IMG/VR virus record: IMGVR_UViG_2671181094_000002
Origin: a virus
Taxonomy: Duplodnaviria; Heunggongvirae; Uroviricota; Caudoviricetes
DNA: 38,185 nt
Strand: one strand, 5' to 3'
Part shown: one piece after another, positions 7,848 to 28,738 of the stretch
Layout: the number at the start of each line of letters is the position of its first letter
How positions within the stretch are numbered: the stretch's first letter is position 1
The notes under the pieces: generated by a model
The model's database searches: none
What the model was told of the DNA's origin: nothing
What the model saw: only the letters and a program-made list of their open reading frames with translations
Position numbers and translations under genes: made by a program

Positions 7848-7858
7848 CCCACACCTCT

Positions 7859-8450: not shown

Positions 8451-8536
8451 AACTGTCTCCGCACAGCCCCGTTCAGGGGCTGATTTCAGGTACAAAAAAA
8501 GCCCTTACGGGCCATCAGAGTTGTTGTCTGCGACGT

Positions 8537-10495
8537 TTACGCCGTACATTTCACCAGACCGCGGTGATCAACTGGCGCGACACCGGCGTCAATACGCACT
8601 TTCGTTGTCACGCCATCCACACTGAAGCCCTCCATCTGATCAATATATGGCGTATCCACACCGTTGAGATAAGCCACTTCAATTGTATCGGAGCCTTTTG
8701 ACGCAGCCAGGTAGAAGGTGGTCTGGCTGTTATCATCAAGACGAGGCTCTGCAATAACGGTCGCAAAATCTTTCACCGGGTTAATAATACCGGCGTTAAT
8801 GTCAGCCCCCTTGACACTTGAGGAGCGAATGACCTGGTTAGCAACAGACTCCATCGCCGTCGGTACCAGTACGAACGCAGGACGAATATTCAGATGACGC
8901 TCCCCCTCTTTCTGAACGCGCATCAACTGGCGGGCTTTATCCAGCGATGCCACGTCCATTGCAGCGCTCTCCAGTACGTTTGCATGTTTCGCTTTATCGA
9001 ACAGACTTACATTATCTGTGGAGATTTTCGGGTTAGACGTCAGAATGGCATAAACCAGATCGGCAATAGTGGATTTCGCCGCACGGCCCAGCTTCATCGG
9101 GACATCGGTCAGCATATTCAGATCATCATTGATAATGGCCTGACGGGTGATACTGAACAGCTCGCCATAGGTCGCCAGTGCAATAGTGGCCTGTTTATCT
9201 CCGGTGGTGACGTATTTATATTCCGCCCCTTCACGCACCTGACGCAGAGCACTGAAGCCCCCCATACCCACACGATGGGCAATTTTAAAATCAGACAACT
9301 GACCTTTCCGCGTCCACTGTTCATAGGTTTCAGGGGCATCTTCCCAGCCCTGCAGAATGGCTTTGTTCGCAACATCCAGCAGAATATTACCGAAGTCAGA
9401 CGTACTGTGTGTGAACGCCGCACCGACCATCTGCATCGGGTTATAACTGGAAACCCCAATACCCCGTTCAGTCAGTGACATACGGGCATATTCACGCAGG
9501 GTCATCCCGTTGTAGACATTATCACGTTCGGTTTTTTCAAATCCGGCACGCGCCATCAGCGCCTGGCGGATCCCGTCCCCCACAAAATTACCGTTACCGG
9601 CATAAATATGAGCCGGGGTATTTTTATTGGATGGCGTGGACTCGCGCCCCATCTCGTTCAACAGCTTTTCGCGGGCCTGCTCCAGCGAACATTCAGGATC
9701 GGCAAGACACTGAGCCTGCAGCGTCTGATAACGCCCGCCAAACATGGCAAACAGATCATTAATACCGTTTACACGCGCTTTTTGCTCTGCCAGTACCTGC
9801 GCACGGATACTGTTTTCATCCACCACGGGTGCTGCTGCCTGCACTGGCGTCCGGGAGGCTGCAGGTTCATTATCCTGTACGCGTGGAGCACTGTTACGTG
9901 GCGGAGTAATCATGTTTCGAATGGATTCCGGCATCTTTTTAAATTCCTCTGTACGTTTTGACTGAATACATGCCATTGCCTTAACGGCTGGCGTCACCTG
10001 ATCAGCAAATCCCTGTGCCAGACATTCGGCACCGGACATCCAGGTCTCATCCGCCAGCATGGCAGCAATTTCATCGGTGGTTTTCCCGGTTTTCTGTGCA
10101 TAAGCGGGTAACAGAACAGCCTCAACCTTATCGAGCAGGTCGGCATAGGTGCGCATGTCCTCCGCATCACCGCCCGTAAAGCCAAATGGTTTATGAATCA
10201 TCATGAAGGTGTTTTCCGGCATAATGACCGGGTTTCCCACCATCGCAATGACCGACGCCATTGACGCCGCCACACCGTCGACATAAACGGTAATGGACGC
10301 ACCATGTGTTTTCAGTGCATTAAAAATGGCGATGCCTTCAAAGACATCGCCACCCGGTGAATTGATATGGAGATTAATGTGGGTGATATCGCCCAGTGCA
10401 TTCAGATCACTGATAAACTGCTTCGCCGTAACACCCCAGAAACCAATCTCGTCATAAATATAAATATCCGCGTCACTCTGGTGACCAGCCTGCAT
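8537..10495 (-). CDS. Prohead protease (ClpP/S49-like) - scaffold - major capsid protein encoded in a single ORF
   Basis: ORF track 8537..10756; probable start MQAGHQSDADIYIYDEIGFWG at 10495 just after portal stop; N-terminal region has ClpP/S49-like motifs (INSPGGDV, ASMASVIA), then Ala/Gln-rich linker, then about 350 aa capsid-like domain. Confidence 0.75.
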   Translation of the reverse strand: MQAGHQSDADIYIYDEIGFWGVTAKQFISDLNALGDITHINLHINSPGGDVFEGIAIFNALKTHGASITVYVDGVAASMASVIAMVGNPVIMPENTFMMIHKPFGFTGGDAEDMRTYADLLDKVEAVLLPAYAQKTGKTTDEIAAMLADETWMSGAECLAQGFADQVTPAVKAMACIQSKRTEEFKKMPESIRNMITPPRNSAPRVQDNEPAASRTPVQAAAPVVDENSIRAQVLAEQKARVNGINDLFAMFGGRYQTLQAQCLADPECSLEQAREKLLNEMGRESTPSNKNTPAHIYAGNGNFVGDGIRQALMARAGFEKTERDNVYNGMTLREYARMSLTERGIGVSSYNPMQMVGAAFTHSTSDFGNILLDVANKAILQGWEDAPETYEQWTRKGQLSDFKIAHRVGMGGFSALRQVREGAEYKYVTTGDKQATIALATYGELFSITRQAIINDDLNMLTDVPMKLGRAAKSTIADLVYAILTSNPKISTDNVSLFDKAKHANVLESAAMDVASLDKARQLMRVQKEGERHLNIRPAFVLVPTAMESVANQVIRSSSVKGADINAGIINPVKDFATVIAEPRLDDNSQTTFYLAASKGSDTIEVAYLNGVDTPYIDQMEGFSVDGVTTKVRIDAGVAPVDHRGLVKCTA

Positions 10496-10508
10496 CCTGA
10501 ACCAGGAA

Positions 10509-12089
10509 TTATTCTTCGGACTGGTTGTTGGTGTGCTGCGGCTCCTGTCGTTTCGTTGCGGCACTGCTGCCTCCTTTATCACTGGCCGGATCGGTATCAA
10601 ATACCAGATCCAGCTTGCGGTTTTCATCAATTTCGGCCTTGCGCCGACGTTTGACATCATCCGGATTACGACCACCAGCACGTACCCAGTCTGATTCTGT
10701 CGCCGCTCCACCACGAATCTGGATTTTCCAGGCCTCAGCCTCCTTAACAGGGTCAATCCACGGCATCACCGGTCCGGAATACACCGCGGTATACAGTGAA
10801 GAACGATCAAGATCGCGGGGTAGCCTGATAACACCGGATGCCACAGCCTGTTTCAGCCAGGCACGGTACATCGGGCGGGTGACGGCACCAATAAACCAGT
10901 CCTGCAGGATCAGGTAGCCATCAGTAGACTCAACCAGCTCCTGACGCTGGGCGCTGTAAGTGCCGTTATAGTTGCGCGCTGTACTGGAAAAACTCAGACG
11001 ACTGCCAGCCGCCACTGCACGCAACTGACCATTACGAAAAGTTTCAAGATTAGGATTGGGACGATCCGACTTCACCATTCCGATTTCTTCGCCGGGTTTC
11101 AGATCGTCGTAAATAATGCCTGGCTGAATGGTAAGCTCGCGTTCCTTATCCTTGCTGCCATTACCATCCGGTTCATAGCTCTGCCCGTCGCCTTTCCGGA
11201 TGTACATCCCCAGAGCAGCGGCGATCCTTGCTGCAGTCAGCTCAGAATCTTCATACTCTTTCAGAGCACTGAGGCGGATCAGCACACCGGACAACAAAGA
11301 CGTCCCGCGCATCTGGTGCAGACGGCGAACAAATTTAAGATGCAGCATTCGCTCTGCATCCACTTCTTTGGTTTCCATCTGCCGTCCGGATACAGGACGA
11401 CTTTTATACACCAGATATTTTTCGGGACGCCCCCAGTCATCAACAAACACGCCCTGATTCAGCCTGTTGCTCTCATCACTGGTCATGGGAATAAAGTCCG
11501 GCTCGAGTGCCTCCAGCCAGAAATGAACACCGGCAGAAGGCGTCAGGCTGTTTATGCGCCCGGAAACCATCTGGGCAAACACCTCACCATCGCGCAGCCA
11601 GGTACGCAGCATCAGACGTTCGAGCATCGGACGGGTAAACTGCCCGGTGACTTCCGGACTGACAGACCATTCACTCCATCGGGTGCGTATCTCCGCTGCC
11701 AGATCACGGGCAATGGCCCCATTGCGTAATACCGGATGTGGCTCGACAATAATCCCGTTTTTCCCCACCACCCGTTCTTCCAGCTTGTCAAATACACCAA
11801 TGACCAGATCGTGGTTGTTATCAAGGTAACGGGCCTGCTCACGTAACGACACGGCCCCGTACTGGCTTAACTGGTCGGCAGTTCGGTTCTCCCGTCGGGC
11901 TTTGTGTGTCCGCGTCGTTTTTACGGCCTCATAAGCCTGAATCACCGCACGGGAACGCAGCCTTGCCGCTTTCCATCCTGGTGAAAAAACGCCAATCACA
12001 TCATCAAGAATTGCCATCAGAACCTCGCCAGCCGGTACCCGGGATGCCCCCGTCGTCGTGTAATCAGAGCCGCAAGGCGGCGCTCCCAC
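10509..12089 (-). CDS. Portal protein
   Basis: 526-aa ORF immediately downstream of W and terminase, upstream of protease/capsid; size and position as lambda gpB; track start is a GTG, an internal ATG (MAILDDV) near 12017 is an alternative. Confidence 0.8.
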   Translation of the reverse strand: MGAPPCGSDYTTTGASRVPAGEVLMAILDDVIGVFSPGWKAARLRSRAVIQAYEAVKTTRTHKARRENRTADQLSQYGAVSLREQARYLDNNHDLVIGVFDKLEERVVGKNGIIVEPHPVLRNGAIARDLAAEIRTRWSEWSVSPEVTGQFTRPMLERLMLRTWLRDGEVFAQMVSGRINSLTPSAGVHFWLEALEPDFIPMTSDESNRLNQGVFVDDWGRPEKYLVYKSRPVSGRQMETKEVDAERMLHLKFVRRLHQMRGTSLLSGVLIRLSALKEYEDSELTAARIAAALGMYIRKGDGQSYEPDGNGSKDKERELTIQPGIIYDDLKPGEEIGMVKSDRPNPNLETFRNGQLRAVAAGSRLSFSSTARNYNGTYSAQRQELVESTDGYLILQDWFIGAVTRPMYRAWLKQAVASGVIRLPRDLDRSSLYTAVYSGPVMPWIDPVKEAEAWKIQIRGGAATESDWVRAGGRNPDDVKRRRKAEIDENRKLDLVFDTDPASDKGGSSAATKRQEPQHTNNQSEE

Positions 12090-12235
12090 TCCTGCCGCCC
12101 CTGCCGGATCTCAGATAAGTTTTCCATGGTCATCTGCTGACCATTAAAGGTGACGGATTTTCCGTCCAGCACCGCCATTTCAGCTTCCGTATAACGCTGA
12201 ATCATGGCTTCAATATCATTCTGATTCATAACCAT
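12017..12235 (-). CDS. W: Head-tail joining protein W-like
   Basis: 72-aa ORF between terminase large subunit and portal; C-terminal RRRGHPGY resembles lambda gpW C-terminus. Confidence 0.7.
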   Translation of the reverse strand: MVMNQNDIEAMIQRYTEAEMAVLDGKSVTFNGQQMTMENLSEIRQGRQEWERRLAALITRRRGHPGYRLARF

Positions 12236-14328
12236 CCTCCGGAAGTCAGCCAGGGGTTAACATCGTCAGTTACTGTTTTCTTCCGTTTTTGTTTTTTAAC
12301 AGGCGTGGATACCGGTTCCGGTGAGGGTGACGGTTCGGTACTGTCCGGGACACACTCCAGCCAGGTTTCCCGGCTCGCCCACTCCGGTGCATCCGGCCAG
12401 CGGATATTTTCGTATCCATGCAGAATGACCAGAGCCTCGGCATACACCATCAGGTCAAAAGCTTCGTTGGTACCGCGACCCGGCTTACTCCATTTCCCGT
12501 CACTGCTCCGCTCTTCATACGTCAGTTCGTCGTAAAACCAGCTCCCCAGCCAGTCAGGGAAATGCACATAGCCTGGACCTGGCGAGTCACGCCATAACGC
12601 GTTATTCACCCGGTCTTTCAGGGCATCCGTCTGCAGAAGCCAGAGCGGCACATCACCTGCGGCCTGCGCCCGGCGGCCCGTTCGTCCGGTGTTATCAGGG
12701 AATGTACGGCTGATCAGTTTTGCGCGCCGGATGCTGTCACCCTTAAACAGGTAAATACGTTTACCAAGGCCATCACGACGGCAACGACGCCAGAATTTAT
12801 AGGCATTATCAGTGACCCCGTCTTCACCGCCGGAGTCCACCGCCATTGCCATCAGTCGCATTTGTTGAGAAGGATCGGAGGCCAGCGGCCAGCTTTTATG
12901 AAAAACATCCGTCAGCAGGACATCCCAGTCTTCCGGATAGCTGGCCGGATCAATTCGCTGGCTCTCCCCGTCGCTGTCACCGCGCAATGACTGCGTGATG
13001 TTGTAACGATCAATAATCCAGCGTTCGCCACGGCTGCCATAGCCCGTTACCTGAACCACAAAACGGCGATGACGTCCCGCCTGCACATCCACTGTCGCCA
13101 CAAGGAAATTAACGCCATCCGGCACACTGCGGGAAGGAACTGGCTCTGCCCGCTGCTCAAGCAGTTCACTTTTTCGTTGCTCCATGCTGGCGCGGGGAAG
13201 ATAAGGTAATCCCCAGTCAGTATTGATAACCGTCTTGAGTGTTTCTTCACTTCCGGTTGTCTCGTATTCCTGTTCTGCAGTAAGCAGTTTGTAAACGAGT
13301 TGCGAGAGTGTCTGGTAAGCAGCTGCCGGACCCTCCATCCAGAATGACGCAATACGTGAGCGTCGGGGATCACCATAACGACTGCCATCCGCATTGATGG
13401 ATTCACCATCCCGCAACCAGACCCCACGTCCGTTCAGCTCACGTTTTTGTTCAGGCATAATCCGTCCTGAACAGGAAGGACACTGAATATAAGCCGCCTC
13501 ACTTGCCAGCACGGGATCGGCAATATCACGGAAACCAGCAACCACATCGCCGCAGGGCTGAAAATACTCACCACAGTGTGGACAGGGCCAGTACCAGCGA
13601 CGGCGATCGCCACGGTTATAGAGCGACAGTATCCCCGTGGTTGGTGGAGCCTCATGCGGTGAAGTCCGTCGCCATTTCACATCCTTCACATCCCTGCCGG
13701 GGGAACTCTCCACCAGCGTCATACCGCTGGACATAAATGTGGTGGTACGTTTTGAGGCAAGAGAGAAGGCATCCCCCTCGCCATCAATATCTTCCGGAAA
13801 ACGGTCATAATCCGTCAGCGCGACGCATTTATAATCTGATGAGGACATGATATTGACTGACGGCCAGCCGATTTTCAGGTAGTTGCCAGCAAGGAATGTT
13901 CTGTCATAAACGTTGTTGTCATTTTTGTTCGGACTCAGGCGACTGACCACTTCCGGGCTGACGCGAAACGTTCTGGCGAGTCGTTTTTTAGAGTGTTCGC
14001 GGGCTTTTTCCTCCGTCATCTGAATGATCAGCATATCCGCAGGATCGCAAATCACGTTGTAAATCACCCAGCCGTCAATCAGGCCGATAGTCTTGCCGGT
14101 TCGTGCCGGGCCAACAAATATCACTGCGTCGTATTCACGCGAGGCCAGGCAGTTCATCGGCTCAATAACATACGGTGCCACCAGCGGATCCCACGGGACT
14201 GAGTTCCCTGCCCCCATGGGCACCCGCATATACTGAGCAACGGCATCAGCAACCCGCATTCGTCTCGGTGCGCGAAGGATATAACCTGAATCGGTTCGTG
14301 CTGCCTTTGCGGTTTCCTGATTCAGCAT
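12226..14328 (-). CDS. Terminase large subunit (GpA-like, cos-type)
   Basis: 700-aa ORF with Walker-A-like VGPARTGKT and CPHCG zinc-ribbon-like motif, organisation like lambda gpA family. Confidence 0.85.
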   Translation of the reverse strand: MLNQETAKAARTDSGYILRAPRRMRVADAVAQYMRVPMGAGNSVPWDPLVAPYVIEPMNCLASREYDAVIFVGPARTGKTIGLIDGWVIYNVICDPADMLIIQMTEEKAREHSKKRLARTFRVSPEVVSRLSPNKNDNNVYDRTFLAGNYLKIGWPSVNIMSSSDYKCVALTDYDRFPEDIDGEGDAFSLASKRTTTFMSSGMTLVESSPGRDVKDVKWRRTSPHEAPPTTGILSLYNRGDRRRWYWPCPHCGEYFQPCGDVVAGFRDIADPVLASEAAYIQCPSCSGRIMPEQKRELNGRGVWLRDGESINADGSRYGDPRRSRIASFWMEGPAAAYQTLSQLVYKLLTAEQEYETTGSEETLKTVINTDWGLPYLPRASMEQRKSELLEQRAEPVPSRSVPDGVNFLVATVDVQAGRHRRFVVQVTGYGSRGERWIIDRYNITQSLRGDSDGESQRIDPASYPEDWDVLLTDVFHKSWPLASDPSQQMRLMAMAVDSGGEDGVTDNAYKFWRRCRRDGLGKRIYLFKGDSIRRAKLISRTFPDNTGRTGRRAQAAGDVPLWLLQTDALKDRVNNALWRDSPGPGYVHFPDWLGSWFYDELTYEERSSDGKWSKPGRGTNEAFDLMVYAEALVILHGYENIRWPDAPEWASRETWLECVPDSTEPSPSPEPVSTPVKKQKRKKTVTDDVNPWLTSGGWL

Positions 14329-14822
14329 TACTCCTCCTGCTGTAATTCCTCCTCATCATCCGCACCTGCTTCGGTCACCCGCAGGGCTATCTGATCGCGC
14401 AGATCATCAATAATGGACTGAACACGGCTCACAGCGGCAGGCTGCAGACCGCAGTCACGTTCCAGAATATCCGGTAATGTCTCCAGCACCTGCACGACCG
14501 CTTTTGCCCAGATGGCAAACTCCCGTCTGACATCACTGGCCGGAATGAGTTGTGCCGTTTCCTGCTCGAACTTAAGACGCTCACGTTCAGACTGATACCA
14601 GGCTTTGCGCTCATGCGCGTCCATTTCGCCTTCTGCAACCGGCGGTGGTAATGCCAGAAATGCCGACACAATATCAACCACCCGATAAAGCTTGAGGTTG
14701 CTTTCATGCCCCCCTGCAACGGGTAGATTTTGCAGCCTTGCCGCAGCAGTCTGGCGATGTACACCTGACAGTGCCGCCAGTTGACTGATATTCAGCGTCA
14801 GATTTTTTAACTCTCGATCCAT
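14328..14822 (-). CDS. Terminase small subunit (putative, not Nu1-like in sequence)
   Basis: 164-aa ORF immediately upstream of and overlapping terminase large subunit; N-terminal HTH-like segment LTLNISQLAALSGVHRQTAAARL; acidic C-terminus. Confidence 0.55.
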   Translation of the reverse strand: MDRELKNLTLNISQLAALSGVHRQTAAARLQNLPVAGGHESNLKLYRVVDIVSAFLALPPPVAEGEMDAHERKAWYQSERERLKFEQETAQLIPASDVRREFAIWAKAVVQVLETLPDILERDCGLQPAAVSRVQSIIDDLRDQIALRVTEAGADDEEELQQEE

Positions 14823-14925
14823 ACCCGCTCCAGAATGTTTTAAACATGCATCTTGCGAACAACTTTAGGCAAACGGTGTTAGTGATGAACAAAAAACAAT
14901 CAAAATCGACACCACAAAAATAAAA

Positions 14926-14953
14926 CTACTGTAATATCAATCTATTACAGTAG
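14926..14953. promoter_or_regulatory. Perfect inverted repeat ctactgtaata-N6-tattacagtag upstream of the packaging genes
   Basis: 11-bp arms, exact reverse complements, 6-bp spacer, about 100 bp upstream of the terminase small subunit start in an otherwise non-coding stretch. Confidence 0.4.
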
Positions 14954-15140
14954 TGGTGATGACGAATGAAATTTCAAAAACTAGCCTTTTTCCGCGACGC
15001 TCCCGCCCCGTGGCAGGCCACCCCACCGGGAGGACCCGTCAGCCTGACAGCTCTGACGAACGTCTGATACAACGCCTTGCATGAATGGCATCGGGATAAT
15101 CCAGAAAGGCATAGCATCGCGCCCACAAGAATCTGTGTAA

Positions 15141-15356
15141 GTGTCCTGTTTCTTCCACCCCCGCACAGGACTGGCGAGCATGAGGGACAAACCCGCGAAC
15201 CATAAACGCGGTAAAAACCCGGTGTGCATCGTTTTTGATTATTCCCGCACACTCTCGCAGAAGGAGTTCCCCGTCGGGCTACGGTCTCTGTTAATACGGG
15301 AATACGGCGACGATACAGCGCATGATGTGTCAGGCTTGAATACCTTTATCCGTTAA
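15141..15356 (+). CDS. Hypothetical small protein on opposite strand between lysis and packaging genes (position of lambda bor)
   Basis: 71-aa ORF (possible internal start MRDKPANHKRGKNPVCIVFDY...); followed 40 nt downstream by a plus-strand hairpin with T-run; no family recognised. Confidence 0.25.
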   Translation: MSCFFHPRTGLASMRDKPANHKRGKNPVCIVFDYSRTLSQKEFPVGLRSLLIREYGDDTAHDVSGLNTFIR

Positions 15357-15395
15357 AAGGGATATCAGTTAAGTTATCCCGTGTAGGGTATAAGC

Positions 15396-15425
15396 CATTA
15401 TCAAAGCCACTCTGTAGGGAGTGGC
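15396..15425 (+). terminator. Rho-independent terminator-like hairpin
   Basis: aagccactc-tgtaggg-gagtggctt stem-loop followed by ttttgtaat. Confidence 0.35.
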
Positions 15426-15637
15426 TTTTGTAATGGCAATAAAAAGCCCCGCGAATACGAGGCTAAATCCTGGTATTTGTAATGACTGGCTCTTATTTCA
15501 ACGCAGCCCCTTACCGCGCGCCAGATGCTCAACTTCAAGCATCAGCAATGAGATGTTTAATCTGGATTCACTCCAGAAGTGATCACCACCCTGTCTACAG
15601 AGCCAGATGTGAAGGATGATGAGTAAAATTATCGCTA

Positions 15638-16117
15638 TCATCGAAGGCATTGCGTCCTGATATATTCCTGAAGCGTTCTCAGTGCTGTCTGGTCTCTGAT
15701 GATTCCGTCCCGGATACCGAGAACGTTTCGTCCAGCAACTGGAGAGAGTTCGACGGTGGCATCATTGCCCATGCCGGAGGCGCTGGAGGTTTCGGCTGAG
15801 GATGGCACAGAGCATTTTCCTTTGACGAGCACCCGACCACCATTATCAAGCTTGCGCCGAAGAGCATCATTTTTAGCTTTCGCATCAGCTAACTCCTTCG
15901 TGTATTTAGCATCGAGTGCATCAGCAGAACGCTGGCGCTGCTGCATGTCAGTAATGGTGGCGGTCGCCTGCTTCAGCTCACTGACTTTTTTATCTCGCTG
16001 TTCTTTGTAGGCGATGGCGTTATCACGGTAATGATTGACCGCCCACGACAGGCAGACGATGATGCAGATAACCAGAGCGGAGATAATCGCGGTTACTCTG
16101 CTCATTGTTGCCCCCAC
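15638..16117 (-). CDS. Rz: Spanin inner-membrane subunit Rz (i-spanin)
   Basis: 159-aa ORF with N-terminal TM segment ([16 protein letters not shown]) and coiled-coil periplasmic region, directly after endolysin gene. Confidence 0.85.
15679..15885 (-). CDS. Rz1: Spanin outer-membrane lipoprotein Rz1 (o-spanin), embedded in +1 frame of Rz
   Basis: 68-aa ORF fully inside Rz; lipoprotein signal with lipobox MVVGC, proline-rich [11 protein letters not shown] as in Rz1. Confidence 0.8.
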
Positions 16118-16599
16118 AAACAGACTTCACGCTCAATCTCACGGCGAGTCATCAGTCCTTTCCATTGATTACCGCCAGCGTATGTCCAGCGCCGTAGCTG
16201 ATCACATGCGCCTTTAATATCACCCTGGTTTATTTTGCGAAGAAGCGTCGATGTTCTGAAATTGCCAGCACCCACGTTGTAGACGAACGAGTAAAGAGCG
16301 CCGCGCGTTGTTTCCGGTATATCGACTTTGATGTACCGGTTAATTTGTCTGGCGACAGTGGCAAGGTCTTTATTCAGGAGGGCTTTGCACTCTGCTTCGG
16401 TATACGTTTTACCGGGAATGATGTCTTTTCCTGTATGCCCGTAACATACAGTCCATACACCAACTATGTCTTTGTAAGGATTATGTCTCACACCTTCCAG
16501 ACCATCGTTACCACTTGGGCCAGTGATTAACACAGATGCTATAGCAATAGCCCCGCCACCAATAGCAGCAGCAACAGCTTTTCGTAATGATGGAGGCAT
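16102..16599 (-). CDS. R: SAR endolysin (phage 21 R-type lysozyme)
   Basis: 165-aa ORF; N-terminal Gly/Ala-rich signal-arrest-release segment [20 protein letters not shown] followed by lysozyme catalytic region (E...D...T pattern), like R21 / DLP12 RrrD. Confidence 0.9.
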
Positions 16600-16814
16600 T
16601 ATTCACCTCTCGCAGCCTTGCGCTTATCTTCTTTAATCTTGAAATAAAGGTTTGTCAGGTACGTCAGCAGGCCAAATACCAGGCTACCCAGCACACCTAT
16701 TGCTGCCCACTGTGAGGGCGTGACTTTATCGAGCAGCTGTAAAAACCAGTACCCGGCACTACCTGCTGAGGTGCCATAGGCGACACCCGTTGTTAACTTA
16801 TCCATGGATTTCAT
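16599..16814 (-). CDS. S: Pinholin S (phage 21 S-type) with dual-start motif
   Basis: 71-aa [29 protein letters not shown]... two TM segments; Met1 and Met4 dual start (holin/antiholin) as in S21 / DLP12 EssD. Confidence 0.9.
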
Positions 16815-17387
16815 AACCCCACCTCGCAGACAAAGCGGGTGTAAATTGAGGGAATACTACGAAACGTAACAGACTCGGAGTCAGTGAATAACTCAGGTAT
16901 TGGGTTATCAGCTAATATCGAGACTCAAAAAATGGAAAAACCCGCTCGACGGCGGGTTTAAGCTGTGTGACGAAGTAACCACTCTTAACAGCATAACCAA
17001 TTTTTTACGTACGTAAACCACTAAATGATATTTGCGAGAATGCTACCGAGTATTGAAAACACCACTACAAATACATAAGCAAATCTCAACAAATAACCAA
17101 CAAATAATTTCCAGCGTTACTTTTAGCCAATTTAAATTGAACCTTCAAATTATAGAGCGCTTATAAATAACAGCCATTAATATAAATTGGCTAATAGATT
17201 TATTTTTATTCAGCCAAGAGCCATGAATAGGATTCGATAGAAAAAAGTTCAGATAAAAATAGAGATCTACTTCACAAATTAAACGAGAAACCAAAACTTA
17301 CATCTTGAAATAATCACATTGATTAGATGAATATTTATCGCGCAGTGACATCATTTTTTAATAATAGTTCAAAAAAAAGGGCTCACG

Positions 17388-18470
17388 ATGAAAAAATTAA
17401 CAGTGGCAATTTCTGCTGTAGCTGCATCAGTACTGATGGCGATGTCTGCTCAGGCAGCTGAAATTTATAATAAAGACAGTAACAAGCTGGATCTGTACGG
17501 GAAAGTTAATGCTAAGCACTACTTCTCCTCTAATGATGCAGATGATGGTGATACTACTTATGCCCGTCTTGGCTTCAAAGGTGAAACCCAAATCAACGAT
17601 CAACTGACTGGTTTCGGTCAGTGGGAATATGAATTCAAAGGCAACCGCGCTGAATCTCAAGGTTCCTCCAAAGATAAAACCCGTCTTGCCTTCGCTGGCC
17701 TGAAATTCGGTGACTACGGCTCCATCGATTATGGCCGTAACTACGGTGTAGCATACGATATTGGTGCATGGACCGACGTTCTGCCAGAATTCGGTGGCGA
17801 TACCTGGACCCAAACAGATGTATTCATGACTGGTCGCACCACAGGTGTTGCAACTTATCGTAACAACGACTTCTTTGGTCTGGTTGATGGCCTGAACTTT
17901 GCAGCTCAGTATCAGGGCAAAAATGACCGAAAAGAAGTAACTGAAGCTAATGGCGATGGTTTCGGTTTCTCAACTACTTATGAGTATGAAGGATTCGGCG
18001 TGGGTGCAACCTATGCTAAATCTGATCGCACTAATAATCAGGTTATCTACGGTAACAACGGTCTGAATGCTTCTGGTCAAAATGCTGAAGTATGGGCAGC
18101 TGGTCTGAAATATGATGCGAACAACATCTATCTGGCCACCACCTATTCTGAAACCCAGAACATGACTGTTTTTGGTAATAACCATATTGCCAACAAAGCA
18201 CAAAACTTCGAAGCTGTTGCACAATATCAGTTCGACTTCGGCCTGCGTCCATCCGTTGCTTACCTGCATTCTAAAGGAAAAGACTTGGGTGTTTGGGGTG
18301 ATCAGGACCTGGTTGAATATGTTGATGTAGGTGCAACCTATTACTTCAACAAAAATATGTCCACTTTTGTTGACTACAAAATCAACCTGATTGATAAGAG
18401 CGATTTCACGAAAGCATCTGGCGTTGCTACCGATGATATCGTTGCTGTAGGTATGGTTTACCAGTTCTAA
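17388..18470 (+). CDS. nmpC: Outer membrane general porin, OmpC/NmpC/Lc family (prophage-borne)
   Basis: 360-aa ORF with signal peptide ...MAMSAQA|[16 protein letters not shown], porin signature and C-terminal VYQF; preceded by 570 bp AT-rich non-coding region and AAAAGGG SD; located between Q and S as nmpC in DLP12. Confidence 0.9.
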
Positions 18471-18632
18471 TTTGATTACTAAAAGATATGTTGTGGGAGG
18501 CTTTGCCTCCCCAACATATAAGTGGCTCCCTCAAGCCACTTCCTTTAGAAGCACAACCTTGCTTCTAACTATACAAACCTTCTGTTATATATTACCCTTT
18601 ATTTTTGGGGGCGTTTCAACGCCCCATTTTTA
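18471..18632 (+). ncRNA. Structured porin 3' UTR; candidate IpeX-like small RNA
   Basis: Three consecutive hairpins (long near-palindrome 18486-18519; aagtggct/agccactt; gaagca/tgcttc) ending in an intrinsic terminator; IpeX sRNA is encoded immediately downstream of nmpC in DLP12. Confidence 0.3.
18606..18632 (+). terminator. Rho-independent terminator of the porin gene
   Basis: gggggcg-tttcaa-cgcccc stem-loop followed by atttttaat. Confidence 0.6.
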
Positions 18633-18658
18633 ATAACTTTTAGTAAATAATTGGCGTA

Positions 18659-19057
18659 TTAATTAGAGTTATTAACAACGATATCCATCTCTAACCGGAT
18701 ATCTAATGCCATTAACATCCCTTCAATTATGCCCTCAGCCTTTTGTAACCTTTTCCCGATATAACCATCAGAGCAGCAATGCTTACCTGCCAGTGACATG
18801 AATGTCATACCGACTACATAATAATCTACTAATAAATCGTGCAAATCGCTGTTGTTCTTTTTCAGACGGGCCATGCACCCGCAAATGATCATCGCGTCAT
18901 CGTCACAACATTGCGGGCGAGATTTTACTTTTGAAGGAATTAATCCCTTAAAACCGGCGGCAATGGACGACCAGGTCACATCTTCATGATTATTAGCCGC
19001 CCACGCTCCCCAACGCTCAAGAACCATCTGAATATCACGCATCAACTTACTCCACAA
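18659..19057 (-). CDS. Q: Late gene antiterminator Q (DLP12 QuuD / phage 82-21 type, not lambda Q type)
   Basis: 132-aa [29 protein letters not shown]... with Cys cluster ([16 protein letters not shown]), upstream of lysis cassette and downstream of rusA/ylcG. Confidence 0.85.
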
Positions 19058-19127
19058 AAATCAGACCAGAACGCCAATTACAAGCAAAAATCAACAAAAC
19101 AGTATTAGTTGATTGTTATCTCTGACT

Positions 19128-19268
19128 TCATACTCCTGCTCCTGTCAGGGTTTTGGCGTAATTCTTCAGTATTCGGTAATCGGTCAAAACAGAACCGGGG
19201 AAACGATATAAGCGCAGATGCCCCCAGCGGTGGCGAAGAAGTTCTGCCATATAAAACTCAAACATCAT
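19128..19268 (-). CDS. ylcG: YlcG-like small protein
   Basis: 46-aa [49 protein letters not shown] read by hand; start overlaps rusA stop (ATGA); below ORF-track length cutoff. Confidence 0.6.
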
Positions 19269-19627
19269 TCATTCCCCATTTCGGTGATGGTCAGTTCCAG
19301 CCTCCCACCTTTGGTAACAGGCATCTTCACAACGCGGTAATCAACGACCTGAGCATCATCCAGCCAGAAACCTGCTTTAGTGAGTGCGTCAAAAGCGGCT
19401 TTTTGCAGATTATCCAGGTCACGGCGACGGCGATCCGGCATGTGGCACTCAATGCGGATTTTCACAGGCATAGCCAGGCCGATATCCAGCATTGCGTTTT
19501 TAATGATTCGGGCGACGTTATCGCGGTATGCCTGCCCCTCTGCGCTGACGTGCGTGCGCCCGCGATTATGGCGGTAATAGCGGTTATTGCTCGGCGGCCA
19601 GGGTAGTGTGATGTGGTAAGTATTCAC
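19265..19627 (-). CDS. rusA: Holliday junction resolvase RusA
   Basis: 120-aa ORF (GTG start) ...[14 protein letters not shown]...[28 protein letters not shown], classic RusA motifs. Confidence 0.9.
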
Positions 19628-19750
19628 GCCTTAATTACCCCCTCTTTCAGCCAGATAACCTGCGTTCTCGCCATACCTTCCAGCGCGCATTCTTTTGCAT
19701 ATGCAGCATCGACTTGCTTGGCATGCCCTTTACCGGCAATCTTCTGTATG
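19624..19750 (-). pseudogene. ybcO-like (DUF1364) gene remnant, C-terminal part only
   Basis: Minus-strand frame reads ...[38 protein letters not shown]-stop, whose stop overlaps rusA start (GTGA); frame is closed by two stop codons just upstream, no start and no Cys-rich N-terminal half present. Confidence 0.5.
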
Positions 19751-19833
19751 CGCTAAACCTAGATAGAATCCACTCTGTGCACATTGAAGCCCGCTCTATG
19801 CTTCCTTTCAGGTATTGAAGGGATTGAGATGGG

Positions 19834-20181
19834 CTAAGCATTATTGGCCTCCTGCATCAGGAGAAAGACAATCATGGCGGCGCGGAGAGGTCTGGTATCA
19901 AATATTGGGCTTACGCCTTTTGCATCCACACACCATTCAGTTAACTGGTCTAAGATAGAAATCCTGTATTTCTCAATAATCGGCCATGAAGCGCTCGGAT
20001 CATTGCAGTAGTCAGGCAAATGATTTAATGGCTCAAAAGTTGTATCAGCATTTCCGTAATACCATTTGTTGGTGTTATTCCCTGATGTTTCCGGTTTACT
20101 TGCCCAAAGGCCTTTAAAAATTATGTCTCCTACCATTCTGTTAATTTCAAAATCACTTAACTGTGAATAATCCATTGTCAT
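19834..20181 (-). CDS. Hypothetical nin-region protein
   Basis: ORF track 19834..20217; likely start [18 protein letters not shown] at 20181 overlapping ninE stop (ATGA); family not recognised. Confidence 0.5.
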
Positions 20182-20354
20182 TTCCTCGCACGATATCTTA
20201 GCCACCGGATATCCCACAGGTGAGCTGTGTAATTGAAGGTTTTTACGTCAGATTCTTTTGGGATTGGCTTGCGTTTATTTCTGGAGCGTTTCGTTGGAAG
20301 GTATTTGCAGTTTTCGCAGATGATGTCGGTGAAACTTCGTCGCTGTCGCCTCAT
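20178..20354 (-). CDS. ninE: NinE
   Basis: Internal start [52 protein letters not shown], lambda NinE-like; start overlaps methyltransferase stop. Confidence 0.8.
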
Positions 20355-20878
20355 GCCGCCCTCCTGACACCCTGCCCGATCGCCATCAATGCCGCTTTGG
20401 ATACGGTAGTAAACATCCGTCGAGGACTGATGAACGGTCGCCAAATCAGCAGCATGGAACCTTTGCTGTTTCCCTTCTTCTCCAGCCCTGTCGATGGTTC
20501 GATAAAATTAATCCGTCCATCAGTGATAATGCGAACTTCGTCGACACTCTCCAGAGCCTTGCTGAACCATCCGACTGACATATCCTCTGGCACAAGCATA
20601 ACTACCGTCTGTCGCTGTTGTATGCACTGCTCAGCGGCTTTTTCCACCCACGGCCTGATATTGCTGTACGGTGGGTTATTCCAGATTGCACCGTGGCTTA
20701 CCCACTCAGAATTGAGCGCGTCGTCGGCCTCAGTTAGCCAGTGAGCACACAGAGCATTTTTGTCGCTCGCTGCCGAATCCAGCCAGAATCCAAACTCAAT
20801 ATCCAGTGCATCAAAAAGCCAAAGCGGCGTTTGCCAGCAGTCCTTGTCGTGTGCTGGCGTATTTGATTTGATAGTCAT
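20351..20878 (-). CDS. DNA N6-adenine methyltransferase (phage Dam-like)
   Basis: ORF track 20351..20938; likely start [18 protein letters not shown] at 20878 overlapping ninB stop; NPPY catalytic motif (IWNNPPYSN). Confidence 0.8.
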
Positions 20879-21333
20879 GCAGCCCGATCTCCCCATCTCG
20901 CTTTCCACTCCAGAGCCAGTCTCGCTTCGTCTGACCACTTAACGCCACGCTCTGTACCGAATGCCTGTATAAGCTCTAATAGCTCCGCAAATTCGCCTAC
21001 ACGCATCCTGCTGGTTGACTGGCCTATTACCACAAAGCCATTCCCGGCAAGGTTAGGAACAACATCCTGCTGCTTTAATGCTGCGGTAAACACACACTTC
21101 CAGCTTTCTGCATCCAGCCAGCGACCATGCCATTCAACCTGACGAGAGACGTCACCTAAGCAGGCCCATAGCTTCCTGTTTTGGTCTAAGCTGCGGTTGC
21201 GTTCCTGAATGGTTACTACGATTGGTTTGGTTGGGTCTGGAAGGATTTGCTGTACTGCGTGAATAGCGTTTTGCTGATGTGCTGGAGATCGAATTTCAAA
21301 GGTTAGTTTTTTCATGACTTCCCTCTCCCCCAA
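20875..21333 (-). CDS. ninB: NinB (Orf-family recombination mediator)
   Basis: 152-aa ORF MKKLTFEIRSPAHQQNAIHAVQQILPDPTKPIVVTIQERNRSLDQNRKLWACLGD..., lambda NinB-like. Confidence 0.85.
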   Translation of the reverse strand: MGEREVMKKLTFEIRSPAHQQNAIHAVQQILPDPTKPIVVTIQERNRSLDQNRKLWACLGDVSRQVEWHGRWLDAESWKCVFTAALKQQDVVPNLAGNGFVVIGQSTSRMRVGEFAELLELIQAFGTERGVKWSDEARLALEWKARWGDRAA

Positions 21334-21335
21334 AT

Positions 21336-21372
21336 AAAAAGGCCTCCGATTACCAGCAGGCCTGTTATTAGC
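21336..21372 (-). terminator. Candidate intrinsic terminator between ren and ninB (tR2-like position)
   Basis: AGGCCT...AGGCCT stem with T-run on the minus strand; weak stem, positional analogy to lambda tR2. Confidence 0.3.
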
Positions 21373-21388
21373 TCAGTAATGTAGATGG

Positions 21389-21679
21389 TCATCTTTTAAC
21401 TCCATATACCGCCAATACCCGTTTCATCGCGGCACTCTGGCGACACTCCTTAAAAATCAGGTTCGTGCTCATCTTTCCTTCCCGTTCTTCCTTGGTAGCA
21501 AACCGGTAATACACCGTTCGCCAGACCTTACCTTCGATAACCAGAAGATCTGCCCGTGCCATTTTAGCCGCGGCCTGATTTATGCTGGTTACTGTTGCGC
21601 CTGTTGCCGCAGCTACATCCGGCGCGCAGAAAGTCCGGTGCGTTTTCAGGTAGTGAAGAATTGCCTCTTTGCCTGTCAT
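21389..21679 (-). CDS. ren: Ren
   Basis: 96-aa ORF MTGKEAILHYLKTHRTFCAPDVAAATGATVTSINQAAAKMARADLLVIEGKVWRTVYYRF..., lambda Ren-like. Confidence 0.9.
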   Translation of the reverse strand: MTGKEAILHYLKTHRTFCAPDVAAATGATVTSINQAAAKMARADLLVIEGKVWRTVYYRFATKEEREGKMSTNLIFKECRQSAAMKRVLAVYGVKR

Positions 21680-22377
21680 ACACTGGCTCCTTTCAGTCCG
21701 AACTTAGCTTTGATTTCTGCGATCTTCGCCAGAGCCTGCGCACGATTTAGAGGTCTATCGCCCATGACAGGAAGTTGTTTTACTGGTTCAGGTATAGCCT
21801 CACCACGGTTAATTCGCGCGGTCATACAGGCCAGTTCATCGGCAGCCTTGCGCCGTAATTCCGCGTCAGTCAACGCATTGGCCCGCATGTTCTGATACAG
21901 GTTGGTAACCAGCCAGTAGTGCGCGTTTGATTTCCACGGATAAGACTCCGCATCCGGATACAGGCCTCGCTTCCGGCAATACTCGTAAACCATATCAACC
22001 AGCTCGCTGACGTTTGGCAGTCCGGCGATAACGGATGCTTCTTCCCGGCACCATGCAACAAACTGCCCGGGTGATGGCAGAAATGGTCGATTCTGCCGAC
22101 GGGCTACGCGCATTCCTGCGTTAACCTGTTCCATTGTGGTGATCCCGTTTTCCCGGAAAGCCAGAACCCACTGGCGGCGGATTTCGTTCAGTTCGTTCTG
22201 GTCACGGTTAGCCAGACTCGCCGGGAAAGTTGCCAGTAACTGGCTGAACACACCGTTGATGATCTGCGCTACCTGCTGTACCTGTGGCTTTTCGTCGTAC
22301 TGTTCCGGCATGTTGTTGGCGATCCGACGCATCTGCTCACGGTCAAAGTTAACCATCTGTGCGGCGATGTTTTTCAT
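21676..22377 (-). CDS. P: Replication protein P (DnaB helicase loader)
   Basis: 233-aa ORF MKNIAAQMVNFDREQMRRIANNMPEQYDEKPQVQQVAQIINGVF..., recognised as lambda P. Confidence 0.95.
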   Translation of the reverse strand: MKNIAAQMVNFDREQMRRIANNMPEQYDEKPQVQQVAQIINGVFSQLLATFPASLANRDQNELNEIRRQWVLAFRENGITTMEQVNAGMRVARRQNRPFLPSPGQFVAWCREEASVIAGLPNVSELVDMVYEYCRKRGLYPDAESYPWKSNAHYWLVTNLYQNMRANALTDAELRRKAADELACMTARINRGEAIPEPVKQLPVMGDRPLNRAQALAKIAEIKAKFGLKGASV

Positions 22378-23273
22378 AGATCCACCCCGTAAATCCAGTC
22401 AGTGTTTGTCAGGTCGAGTTTTGGTTTTCCGGCTGTCACGCCAGCCTGTTGCTTGTTACGGTTGATTTCGAGCTGGGTCCACTTGTCGCGGAGTTTGGCC
22501 GGACTCAGCACGTTACCGGACCAGAAGTTGTCCTGGCAGGCCCAGCGGAAAAGCACACACATATCGCGGTGGTTACGTCCGTCACGTTCACGCATCAGGC
22601 GGATATCGTTAGCCCACCCAGCAAAATTCGGTTTTCTGGCTGATGGCGCGATGGTCTTCACCATGTCAAACATCCACTCTGCGGCGGTCAGGTCTTCTGC
22701 TGTTCCCCACTTACTGCCGCTCTGAATTGCAGCATCCGGTTTAACCACAGAAAGATCGTTTTCTGGCTGGTCAGAGGATTCGCCAGAATTCTCGGACGAA
22801 TAATCTTTTCTTTTTTCTTTTGTAATAGTGTCTTTTGTGTCCCCCTGTTTTGAGGGATAGCAATCCCTCAATTTGAGGGATGTTTTATCCCTCGTTTTAG
22901 GGGATTTTCCCTCGTTTTGAGGGATACACCATTCTGAGATGTTTTTATTTGGTCCAAACATGCCGCCTTGCTGCTTGATAATATTCATTCTGACGAGTTC
23001 TAACTTGGCTTCATTGCACCGTTTGACAGGTAACTTTGTAATCTCGCTAAGTTGAGAATCGGTGATTCTGTCCATTGGTTTATTCCACCCATAGGTTTTA
23101 CGCAGAATGGCAAGCAGCACTTTAAACTGTCGCTTGGTCAGATCTGCGCCTGAATAAGCCTCAAGCAGCATATTTGATAGTCTGGCGTAACCATCATCGA
23201 GATCTGCCACATTACGCTCCTGTCCGGCAAAGTTACCTCTGCCGAAGTTGAGTATTTTTGCTGTATTTGTCAT
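22374..23273 (-). CDS. O: Replication initiator O
   Basis: 299-aa ORF MTNTAKILNFGRGNFAGQERNVADLDDGYARLSNMLLEAYSGADLTKRQFKVLLAILRKTYGWNKP..., recognised as lambda O; contains origin iterons. Confidence 0.95.
   Translation of the reverse strand: MTNTAKILNFGRGNFAGQERNVADLDDGYARLSNMLLEAYSGADLTKRQFKVLLAILRKTYGWNKPMDRITDSQLSEITKLPVKRCNEAKLELVRMNIIKQQGGMFGPNKNISEWCIPQNEGKSPKTRDKTSLKLRDCYPSKQGDTKDTITKEKRKDYSSENSGESSDQPENDLSVVKPDAAIQSGSKWGTAEDLTAAEWMFDMVKTIAPSARKPNFAGWANDIRLMRERDGRNHRDMCVLFRWACQDNFWSGNVLSPAKLRDKWTQLEINRNKQQAGVTAGKPKLDLTNTDWIYGVDL
22841..22975. other. Replication origin (ori-lambda-type): four iterons plus AT-rich segment inside the O gene
   Basis: Repeated ~18-bp inverted-repeat units tccctcaaa/ttgaggga-type (ccccctgttttgagggata, atccctcaatttgagggat, atccctcgttttaggggat, tccctcgttttgagggata) followed by AT-rich tract. 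Confidence 0.8.
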
Positions 23274-23283
23274 AATGACTCCT

Positions 23284-23360
23284 GTTGATAGATCCAGTAA
23301 TGACCTCAGAACTCCATCTGGATTTGTTCAGAACGCTCGGTTGCCGCCGGGCGTTTTTTA
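23284..23360 (+). ncRNA. oop: oop antisense RNA
   Basis: Sequence gttgatagatccagtaatgacctcagaactccatctggatttgttcagaacgctcggttgccgccgggcgttttttatt matches my recollection of lambda oop including terminator hairpin; antisense to cII 3' end. Confidence 0.8.
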
Positions 23361-23599
23361 TTGGTGAGAATCGCAGCAACTTGTCGCGCCAATCGAGCCA
23401 TGTCGTCGTCAACGACCCCCCATTCAAGAACAGCAAGCAGCATTGAGAACTTTGGAATCCAGTCCCTCTTCCACCTGCTGATCTGCGACTTATCAACGCC
23501 CACAGCTTCCGCTGTCTTCTCAGTTCCAAGCATTGCGATTTTGTTAAGCAACGCACTCTCGATTCGTAGAGCCTCGTTGCGTTTGTTTGCACGAACCAT
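23306..23599 (-). CDS. cII: Transcriptional activator cII
   Basis: 97-aa protein from internal Met of ORF 23306..23659: MVRANKRNEALRIESALLNKIAMLGTEKTAEAVGVDKSQISRWKRDWIPKFSMLLAVLEWGVVDDDMARLARQVAAILTNKKRPAATERSEQIQMEF. Confidence 0.95.
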   Translation of the reverse strand: MVRANKRNEALRIESALLNKIAMLGTEKTAEAVGVDKSQISRWKRDWIPKFSMLLAVLEWGVVDDDMARLARQVAAILTNKKRPAATERSEQIQMEF

Positions 23600-23717: not shown

Positions 23718-24732
<1,015 letters not shown>

Positions 24733-28733: not shown

Positions 28734-28738
28734 AACGG

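Follow-up and report, generated by a model that had tools for sequence, protein, structure and literature searches.

The window analysed here is the whole stretch of 38,185 nucleotides of IMG/VR virus record IMGVR_UViG_2671181094_000002, and the question raised by this locus is whether the lambdoid prophage in it is a form of phage lambda or was put together from parts of different phages. Lambdoid mosaicism is textbook knowledge, and the original prediction had proposed, for positions 12017-21400, that lambda-like immunity, replication, recombination and integration genes are joined there to Q and lysis genes of the DLP12/phage 21 type and to a non-lambda head module. The open reading frame (ORF) map and similarity searches show that the window holds most of the prophage, in reverse orientation, with the tail genes at the left and int and xis at the right. 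From 33773 to 1 on the minus strand, the ORF map and per-gene homology give the canonical order int-xis-...-N-cI-cro-cII-O-P-nin-Q-S-R-Rz-cos-terminase-head-tail, and window position 1 falls within tail gene I. As described below, the element is very probably a patchwork lambdoid prophage built from exchangeable modules by recombination among lambdoid phages or prophages. The original prediction is confirmed in its main points and its interpretation is supported. Its span fits only the terminase-to-ren part of the mosaic, and several of the genes named in it lie outside.

The nucleotide sequence was compared with lambda (NC_001416) by blastn and the proteins by per-gene tblastn, with E <= 1e-5 as the cut-off for calling no alignment. 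Only 43.5% of the prophage part aligned with lambda, in segments that are 87-100% identical except for gene V at 66%. The aligned segments (blastn) are as follows.
1-2421: genes I, K, L and M, 87.5% nucleotide identity
6388-7313: gene V, 65.6% nucleotide identity
15215-15322: a 108-nucleotide patch
15858-16105: Rz, 87.5% nucleotide identity
20181-20347: ninE, 95% nucleotide identity
20875-24728: ninB through cI, 97.5% nucleotide identity
25767-26101: pL/OL, 89% nucleotide identity
26163-31168: N through orf73, 98.1% nucleotide identity
32142-33773: orf55, xis, int and att, 98.5% nucleotide identity
No similarity to lambda was detectable by blastn at 2422-6387, 7314-15214 and 16106-20180. At the protein level, cro, cII, N, ninB and bet are 100% identical to lambda and cI 98%, O 99%, P 98%, ren 92%, gam 98%, exo 97%, xis 99% and int 99%, so that the genes that had been predicted to be near lambda (cI, cro, cII, O, P, ren, N, gam, bet, exo, xis and int) are indeed so, at 92-100% amino acid identity. 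The high identity of this aligned share, together with the use of the lambda attachment site attB, could be taken to mean that the prophage is a diverged lambda strain whose unmatched parts drifted past recognition. However, a step from 98% identity to none across a stop codon cannot be the product of drift. The non-lambda blocks, moreover, match other phages at 97-100% identity, and the genes in them belong to different families (Q of PF06530 versus PF03589 in lambda, DUF1441, a fusion of ClpP protease and major capsid protein, and an S21-type holin). Because identity of 97-100% alternates with no alignment over blocks of 1-13 kb, chance or uniform divergence is excluded, and we consider the drift explanation hardly credible.

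An identity map in 250-bp bins was made with 11 references: lambda, phage 21, DLP12, mEp460, vB_EcoS-569R4 (569R4), phi458, ev243, mEp332, and the prophages of E. coli JE86-ST05 (JE86), 30EVA1 and S1-CAM-02-A. Every 250-bp bin of the prophage was matched at 92.4% or more in some reference, mostly at 98-100%, and no reference aligned more than 88% of the prophage, the maximum being the JE86 prophage. The searched records comprised 50,697 phage records and 5,426 complete E. coli genomes; JE86 was the best of these genomes (83% of window 9001-34000), and the best phage record was phi458, aligning 69.5% of the prophage. With these as the closest matches, the uniform identity to one described phage that the original prediction had set as evidence against itself was not found. 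The non-lambda blocks are 92-100% identical to other sequenced phages or prophages, and the prophage is a new combination of known modules, every one of them known at 92-100% identity. Even the lambda-like blocks hold sub-gene patches (21404-21987, 28750-30250) that are 90-97% identical to lambda and 99-100% identical to other prophages, the ren/P patch matching S1-CAM-02-A and the bet/exo patch 30EVA1, showing that the mosaicism extends to sub-gene scale. No tRNA genes were found in the window, and Rfam matches were limited to the lambda cIII thermosensor and a host repetitive extragenic palindromic (REP) element.

From these comparisons, breakpoints were placed at ~450-1700, 15218-16104, 19713, 20875, the cI stop/rexB stop (24729/25767) and 31168/32142. 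The original prediction had located junctions in the nin region around ren/ninB and near cos; these correspond to the ninB stop at 20875 and to ~15218 near cosN, and at least four more were not listed in it, namely the tail K-L zone, 19713, the cI/pL interval where bstA replaces rexAB, and the b-region.

The immunity region and the early-left genes are arranged as follows.
20875-24732: lambda-type block with ninB, ren, P, O (with ori), cII, nutR, cro, OR1-3 and cI
24851-25756, plus strand: bstA, 301 amino acids, in a cassette (24733-25766) in the exact rexA-rexB slot
25767-31168, plus strand: early-left block with OL1-3/pL, nutL, N, sieB (minus strand), ral, ea10, the cIII thermosensor, cIII, kil, gam, bet, exo, orf60a, orf63 and orf73
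The lambda-type block is 97.5% identical to lambda 41084-37231, with proteins at 92-100% amino acid identity. cI is identical to lambda cI at 233 of 237 residues, its helix-turn-helix region is the same, and the changes T3A, K71N, E84D and S140Y all lie outside the recognition helix. OR2, OR3, OL1, OL2 and OL3 have the lambda sequence, and OR1 (23945-23961, minus strand) reads TACCTCTAGCGGTGATA with one G-to-A change relative to lambda, a variant that recurs in the S1-CAM-02-A prophage and in two wild phages of lambda immunity, CL707 and mEp332. The boxB sequences of nutR (23679-23693) and nutL (26064-26078) are exact, and the Rfam family Lambda_thermo, the cIII thermosensor, matches at 28073-28131. 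Because cI is near-identical, Cro identical and the operators those of lambda, homoimmunity with lambda can be strongly inferred, in agreement with the lambda immunity that had been predicted; early transcription would be N-dependent.

Homology to lambda is lost at 24728, 4 nucleotides before the cI stop codon is complete, and is regained at 25767 (lambda 35826) with the rexB stop codon, indicating that the rexA-rexB cassette was precisely replaced. The gene in its place begins 119 nucleotides past the cI stop on the same strand, and its product matches PADLOC BstA (3.6e-106) and phrog_6287 (5e-135) and is 92% identical in amino acid sequence to CL70704 of phage CL707, which lies in the same slot. 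The cro-cI-bstA-pL stretch is 99.9% identical to the S1-CAM-02-A prophage, and most of it was found in 32 complete E. coli genomes, in 31 of the 32 at 99% or more. BstA is a prophage abortive-infection protein typically encoded downstream of the repressor, and the interval from cI to N is known as a hotspot of mosaicism (PMC8585504). We also noticed two palindromes in the spacer between cI and bstA (24733-24850), GATCGCATATGCGATTG and TCGCCATATAGGCGA, at about 24760-24815, which might be regulatory or part of a cognate anti-BstA (aba) element.

At the other end of the lambda-type block, the homology to lambda starts at 20875 (lambda 41084), the last base of the ninB stop codon, and the genes to the left of this point are of another type.
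19128-19268, minus strand: ylcG, 96% amino acid identity to DLP12
19265-19627, minus strand: rusA (Pfam RusA), 98% amino acid identity to DLP12
19624-19713, minus strand: 3' remnant of ybcO (DUF1364), 90 nucleotides, just upstream of rusA
19714-20878, minus strand: non-lambda nin genes, namely orf64, ninX (19834-20175), ninE (20178-20354) and the Dam methyltransferase gene (20351-20878)
ninB overlaps the next gene by ATGA both in lambda, where that gene is ninC, and in the window, where it is dam, so that a Dam-type N6-adenine methyltransferase stands in the place of lambda ninC. The nin genes at 19714-20878 were not found in lambda by blastn and tblastn apart from ninE, which forms a lambda-like island at 95% nucleotide identity. 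This stretch, with Pfam matches to NinX, NinE and Dam, is 99-100% identical to ev243, mEp332, JE86 and 30EVA1. DLP12 is 97.8% identical over 18429-19713 (blastn), and its homology ends within the ybcO remnant. The joint at this remnant is common to ev243 and mEp332 and to the JE86, 30EVA1 and S1-CAM prophages, and in these three prophages the DUF1364 fragment is an annotated pseudogene. The mechanical ORF orf64 (19647-19841) overlaps the remnant and may be no real gene.

The nin region leads into the late-control region.
17388-18470, plus strand: intact OmpC/NmpC-type porin gene (moron), antisense to late transcription, between Q and S
18471-18658, minus strand: Q-proximal regulatory region with the presumed late promoter, Q loading site and terminator hairpins
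18659-19042, minus strand: Q of QuuD type, Pfam Phage_antitermQ (PF06530), 8.5e-54
Q scores 181 bits against PF06530, whose gathering cut-off is 26, over profile residues 1-118. It is 99% identical to DLP12 Q and 30% identical to Q21, and a PDB search returned Q21 chains alone (E 7.6e-08). In PMC9388147, PF06530 defines the Q21 family, whereas lambda Q belongs to PF03589 and Q82 to PF06323; on this ground an assignment of QuuD as a phage 82-type Q was dropped. The Q-binding element (QBE) of phage 21, ATTGAGCAAATGAGCA, was taken from the phage 21 record, and searches with ATTGAGCA/AATGAGCA gave no match at up to 3 mismatches across the window. The 188-bp region downstream of Q is identical to that of ev243, the 241-nucleotide stretch 18440-18680 differs from DLP12 at 9 places (8 substitutions and 1 indel), and in the interval from Q to S blastn aligned neither lambda nor phage 21. 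Q is probably a Q21 family member with a different target, one that probably differs from the targets of both lambda and phage 21, and it appears to have been inherited along with its own target region. The altered Q specificity of the original prediction is consistent with this, since PF06530 is unrelated to the PF03589 of lambda, and can be refined to a QuuD type that lacks the phage 21 QBE. Several hairpins lie at 18498-18625 between Q and the porin stop, one of them reading as a terminator on the plus strand, and a strong terminator-like hairpin with a T-run lies at 16938-16959 (minus strand), on the late-transcript strand 125 nucleotides upstream of S. The arrangement suggests that Q-modified polymerase must read through several terminators. 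The porin (Pfam Porin_1, 3e-152) is 100% identical in amino acid sequence to the ev243 porin and 91% identical to the IS5-disrupted nmpC of DLP12, and is likely a lysogenic-conversion gene.

The lysis genes, including a signal-anchor-release (SAR) endolysin gene, come next.
16599-16814, minus strand: S, pinholin/antiholin with the dual start MKSM, 71/68 amino acids, PF04971 'Bacteriophage P21 holin S', 2e-35
16102-16599, minus strand: R, SAR endolysin, 165 amino acids, Pfam PF00959 Phage_lysozyme
15218-16104, minus strand: zone common to both parental types, with the patch 15218-15322, orf50 (15498-15650), Rz i-spanin (15638-16105) and Rz1 (15679-15885)
S is 100% identical in amino acid sequence to DLP12 EssD and 86% to S21 with the MKSM start kept, and inspection and hydropathy reveal a strong hydrophobic helix at residues 35-56 and a weakly hydrophobic segment rich in Gly, Ala and Ser at about residues 9-28. 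R is 95% identical to DLP12 RrrD and 93% to R21, with residues 1-37, which cover the SAR domain and its Gly/Ala-rich helix, identical to R21; the hydrophobic stretch spans residues 4-31, E35, D44 and T50 are conserved in the alignment with R21, and bins 16251-16750 are 100% identical to the 30EVA1 prophage. Rz matches Pfam Phage_lysis, and embedded in it is Rz1, an o-spanin candidate with a hydrophobic signal sequence and the end VVGC. No lambda counterparts of Q, ylcG, rusA, S and R were found by tblastn. The original prediction had assigned these five to the DLP12/phage 21 type; the DLP12 half of that assignment stands at 95-100% identity, and the phage 21 half stands for S and R and fails for rusA and ylcG, which are not in phage 21, and for Q at 30%. 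In favour of its different lysis mechanism are the dual-start holin of S21 type and the R21-like start of R: depolarisation by the pinholin would free the membrane-tethered SAR endolysin, with neither the large holes of lambda S nor a cytoplasmic R.

From the left, sequence of the mEp460/569R4 type continues through cos, orf50 and Rz and reaches 16104 (mEp460) or 16830 (569R4), and from the right, sequence of the 30EVA1/ev243 type extends down to 15218 (30EVA1) or 15858 (ev243 and DLP12). As the two homologies overlap, the head-module crossover likely lies within 15218-16104, about 0.2-1.1 kb from the putative cosN. The patch beginning at 15218, ~210 bp from cosN, is conserved also in lambda, phage 21 and DLP12. 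A joint at the R/Rz boundary (16104/16105), placed by comparison with mEp460, was dropped once 569R4 and 30EVA1 were added; because R, S, Rz and orf50 are common in varied combinations, the head-side joint can be bracketed only. The orf50-Rz-R-S-porin stretch was present in one piece in 215 complete E. coli genomes.

This last observation bears on the idea that the mosaic is an assembly artefact, in which reads of two or more resident lambdoid prophages were merged via repeats such as Rz, K-L and ninB. The E. coli genomes have a median of 4-5 places matching the prophage region, and the joints do fall in stretches common to phage types, where assemblers can switch. However, each joint recurs in complete genomes or phage isolates obtained independently: 15400-17400 in the 215 complete genomes, 15858-23711 in 30EVA1, JE86, ev243 and mEp332, the head-cos-Rz arrangement in 569R4 and mEp460, a lambda-type I with an mEp460-type shaft in phi458, and cI-bstA-pL in CL707 and S1-CAM. 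The canonical lambdoid order is also kept throughout, and no ORF is broken at any joint. An artefact is therefore very improbable.

The left part of the prophage carries the packaging and structural genes.
14997-15008, minus strand: putative cosN, GGGCGGGAGCGT (lambda: GGGCGGCGACCT)
14328-14822, minus strand: small terminase, Pfam DUF1441
12226-14328, minus strand: large terminase, Pfam GpA_ATPase/GpA_nuclease
12017-12235, minus strand: head-tail adaptor
1701-15218, minus strand: structural block of the mEp460/cdtI/Gifsy-2 type, 97-100% identical in nucleotides to mEp460, 569R4, phi458 and the JE86 prophage, with the head genes portal (10509-12017), ClpP-protease/major-capsid fusion (8537-10564) and two head-completion genes, and the tail genes Z, U, major tail (6105-6848), G, T, tape measure (2283-5348) and M
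1-1700, minus strand: tail-tip genes L (1246-1944), K (497-1240) and I (partial, 1-599)
A single ORF carries both PF00574 CLP_protease (residues 95-255) and PF25209 Phage_capsid_4 (residues 441-736), and its JE86 homologue is named ClpP-like prohead protease/major capsid protein fusion protein in RefSeq. The small terminase, adaptor, ClpP-capsid fusion, large terminase and portal are 99-100% identical in amino acid sequence to mEp460, whereas lambda counterparts of the small terminase, adaptor and protease/capsid fusion were undetectable by tblastn and identity to lambda is 25% for the large terminase (gpA) and 23% for the portal (gpB). The predicted difference of the small terminase and protease-capsid from lambda Nu1, C and E is thereby confirmed, with DUF1441 and the ClpP-capsid fusion both 99% identical to mEp460.

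Alongside the DUF1441 small terminase and the GpA-type large terminase, cohesive-end packaging would use a putative cos placed at a 12-nucleotide motif resembling lambda cosN, and the deposited linear genomes of cdtI, Tritos and mEp460_4F5 start at window 15008-15013. A cos at window 14847/14848, corresponding to position 1 of the mEp460 RefSeq record, was rejected, the record beginning at the small-terminase ATG. The lambda/mEp213-like cosN pattern GGGCGGCGNNCT, allowing 1 mismatch, gave chance-level matches only elsewhere in the window. An 82-codon ORF at 14981-15229 (minus strand), hypothetical in mEp460, spans the putative cosN and is probably no gene, because it would be split in linear virion DNA.

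At the tail end, positions 1-450 are of the lambda/phage 21 type: within 101-400 there are 1-4 mismatches per 100 bp to lambda/phage 21 as against 31-53 to mEp460, and the relation is reversed from 1701. Between them, in K and L (450-1700), all types are 92-97% alike, and this is a possible crossover zone. Among the tail proteins only I (99%), K (84%) and L (93%) are near lambda by tblastn, whereas M (56%), H (25%), T (38%), G (33%), V (55%), U (53%) and Z (40%) are distant from lambda and 80-100% identical to mEp460. The original prediction of lambda-like tail genes from V to I thus holds for I, K and L, and the others, at 25-56%, are of mEp460 type.

The right end of the prophage brings in one more exchange.
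31169-32141, minus strand: non-lambda b-region insert in place of most of ea22 and all of ea8.5
31367-31969, minus strand: membrane protein, 200 amino acids, three predicted helices (hydropathy profile), phrog_1416
32142-33773, plus strand: orf55, xis, int and attL, 98.5% nucleotide identity to lambda 29355-27724
33759-33773: lambda att core TTAGTATAAAAAAGC, at the attL junction adjoining ybhC
The homology to lambda ends at 31168, five codons into ea22, and resumes at 32142, 19 nucleotides past ea8.5. The insert has no lambda match by blastn and is 100% identical to mEp332, and its 200-amino-acid protein gave no Pfam or PADLOC match. The integration site is the lambda attB next to ybhC, and the host flank, with ybhC (33820-35103) and ybhJ, is 99% identical to E. 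coli JE86. In this flank, a copy of the insertion sequence IS1 at 37583-38185, 95% identical to IS1 of phi458, begins where the homology to the JE86 chromosome ends and, judging from the JE86 annotation, removes the first few codons of ybhJ. The Rfam family naRNA4, derived from REP elements, matches just over its gathering score at 35172-35242 (minus strand) in the ybhC-ybhJ intergenic region, and reciprocal 103-nucleotide inverted matches lie at 35119-35313; all of this is host DNA without relation to the prophage.

Defective lambdoid prophages are common in E. coli, and the window might likewise hold a non-inducible remnant like DLP12, its modules joined between prophages of one chromosome. 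The left end lying outside the window, the ybcO scar at 19624-19713 and the IS1 located 3.8 kb past attL would fit such a remnant. On the other hand, of 55 ORFs compared, nearly all align with their best homologue over the full length, and most of these homologues are in plaque-forming phages; no truncation, frameshift or IS insertion was seen among the ORFs compared, with mEp460, ev243, mEp332 and lambda as the viable sources of homologues; OR, OL, nutL, nutR and the att core are intact; and ev243 and mEp332, which are viable, carry the ybcO scar too. We therefore consider a defective remnant unlikely.

Recombination among lambdoid phages or prophages would account for the whole arrangement seen in the sequence. 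A lambda-type backbone (int/xis/att, the Red genes, N with nutL and nutR, cI/cro with the operators, cII, O/P/ori, ren and ninB) is combined with a late-control and lysis module of the DLP12/ev243/mEp332 type, extending from dam through rusA, ylcG, a QuuD-type Q with its target, porin, pinholin and SAR endolysin. These are joined to a Gifsy-2/mEp460/cdtI-type module for packaging, head and tail shaft, which has its own cos and is followed by a lambda/21-type tail tip, and two small cassettes are swapped, bstA for rexAB and the membrane-protein gene for ea22/ea8.5. The expected phage would show homoimmunity with lambda, switch on its late genes by a Q21-family antiterminator acting at its own site instead of by lambda Q, and package its DNA in a head made of the fused protease-capsid protein.

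Most of the joints appear to lie at gene boundaries or in short common stretches (K-L, 15218-16104, the ATGA at the ninB stop, and the cI and rexB stops), and partners seem to have moved together, as with cI and its operators, Q and its target region, terminase and cos, Rz and Rz1, and the protease fused to the capsid protein. Joints of this kind together with co-inherited partners form the pattern that would be expected if homologous recombination took place in conserved linkers and selection then retained functional units. The joints at 19713 (inside ybcO) and 31168 (inside ea22) would be exceptions and look like old deletions or illegitimate joints. Co-transfer patterns reported over 95 lambdoid genomes agree with the pattern of the window (PMC9836094), and published work describes mosaicism in lambdoid phages, the hotspot between cI and N and heads with fused protease and capsid protein (PMC9836094, PMC8585504, PMC12315714). 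Several points weigh against this account. The statements on immunity, Q specificity, lysis mode and packaging are all drawn from sequence, and cosN was placed at 15008-14997 solely from the similarity to lambda and the ends of deposited genomes. The left prophage end, with J, the side fibres and attR, lies beyond the window. Some crossovers are bracketed only, as at 450-1700 and 15218-16104, because the parental types are near-identical there, and 11 references do not allow one to work out in what order and direction the exchanges took place.

Going beyond the patchwork origin, we tentatively propose, as a possibility somewhat short of even, that the prophage is an intact inducible phage whose combination of modules (lambda immunity and replication, BstA, the QuuD switch, pinholin and SAR endolysin, the fused protease-capsid head and the lambda/21 tail tip) is absent in one piece from the searched records, and that 15218-15322 and K-L may act as preferred linker crossover sites for swaps of head and tail shaft between lambda-headed and Gifsy-2-headed phages. 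The locus adds a further well-resolved lambdoid module exchange, with several breakpoints placed within a few bases, and leaves the current understanding of phage evolution unchanged. It indicates that the lambda immunity and replication core circulates in nature with very different late-control, lysis and head modules. For annotation, the label 'lambda' is unsuitable for such a prophage, and the lysis and packaging genes are those of other phage types. It also carries two lysogenic-conversion or defence genes, the intact OmpC/NmpC-type porin and BstA.

How the prophage stands among known phages differs from one module to the next. In the structural region, the module from M to the small terminase and the cos of mEp460, cdtI, 569R4 and phi458 are 97-100% identical to the window, and 569R4 matches window 1-16830. 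The early regions, integrases, immunity and Q of these phages and of Gifsy-2 are unrelated to the window, and the mEp460 endolysin is different. The likeness to Salmonella Gifsy-2 refers to the head type with fused protease-capsid, since the sequences compared directly were those of E. coli phages.

In late control and lysis, DLP12 (qsr' of E. coli K-12) has the same order rusA-ylcG-quuD-nmpC-essD-rrrD at 92-100% identity. However, DLP12 is defective, its nmpC is broken by IS5, most of its structural genes are lost, and it lies at argU with another integrase, whereas the window has an intact porin and carries the region inside a complete-looking phage at the lambda attB. Descriptions of lambda qsr' substitution phages date back to the 1970s and 1980s. 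A laboratory precedent is phage 434B (OL657227), annotated as a 434 x DLP12 recombinant that took ylcG-Q-nmpC-S from the DLP12 of K-12 by a crossover in ylcG. Phage 21 (OL657228) shares S (86%), R (93%), the Pfam family of Q, the tail-tip genes I-K-L (94-99% amino acid identity) and lambda-like O, P, ren, ninB and Red genes with the window. It differs in Q (30%), in the lack of rusA, ylcG and porin, in its own immunity and integrase and in its lambda-like heads, and its QBE is not in the window.

In immunity, ev243 (NC_049955) and mEp332 (PV340541; immunity EF120456) are natural lambda-immunity phages with cI, cro, the operators, O, P, ren and ninB as in the window, and their stretch dam-ninE-ninX-ybcO remnant-rusA-ylcG-Q-porin-S-R is also that of the window at 98-100%. 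mEp332 has in addition the lambda int/xis and the b-region insert of the window. Unlike the window with its mEp460-type structural block, both carry heads of the lambda type (Nu1, A, B, C, D, E) and an Rz of the DLP12 type, and bstA is in neither: ev243 retains rexAB and has another integrase, and mEp332 has a different gene at the rex position. For CL707 (EF120459), a wild phage with lambda immunity, the sequence covers the immunity region only, and this region has a 301-amino-acid gene in the rexAB slot (92%) and the same OR1 variant. BstA of the BTP1 prophage is encoded downstream of the repressor (PMC8585504), as is the allele of the window. The S1-CAM-02-A prophage, located at argU, agrees with the window in its immunity-bstA and nin-Q-lysis regions; its heads are lambda-type and its integrase is that of DLP12.

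The closest relatives of the whole prophage lie at the same chromosomal site. The prophage of JE86-ST05 and JE86-ST02 (NZ_AP022815, NZ_AP022811), at the same ybhC site, is the best single match at 88% of the prophage and shares the mEp460-type head and tail shaft, the nin-Q-porin-S-R region and the lambda-type early-left genes. It differs in a non-lambda repressor and Cro without bstA (no match to 23711-26007), in the cos-to-Rz segment (15042-15857), in a non-lambda gene I and in retaining the lambda ea22/ea8.5. The 30EVA1 prophage, at the same attB, is 99.1% identical to the window over 15218-21400 and has lambda-type heads and a different immunity. These attB relatives, 30EVA1 and JE86, depart from the window by single module swaps.

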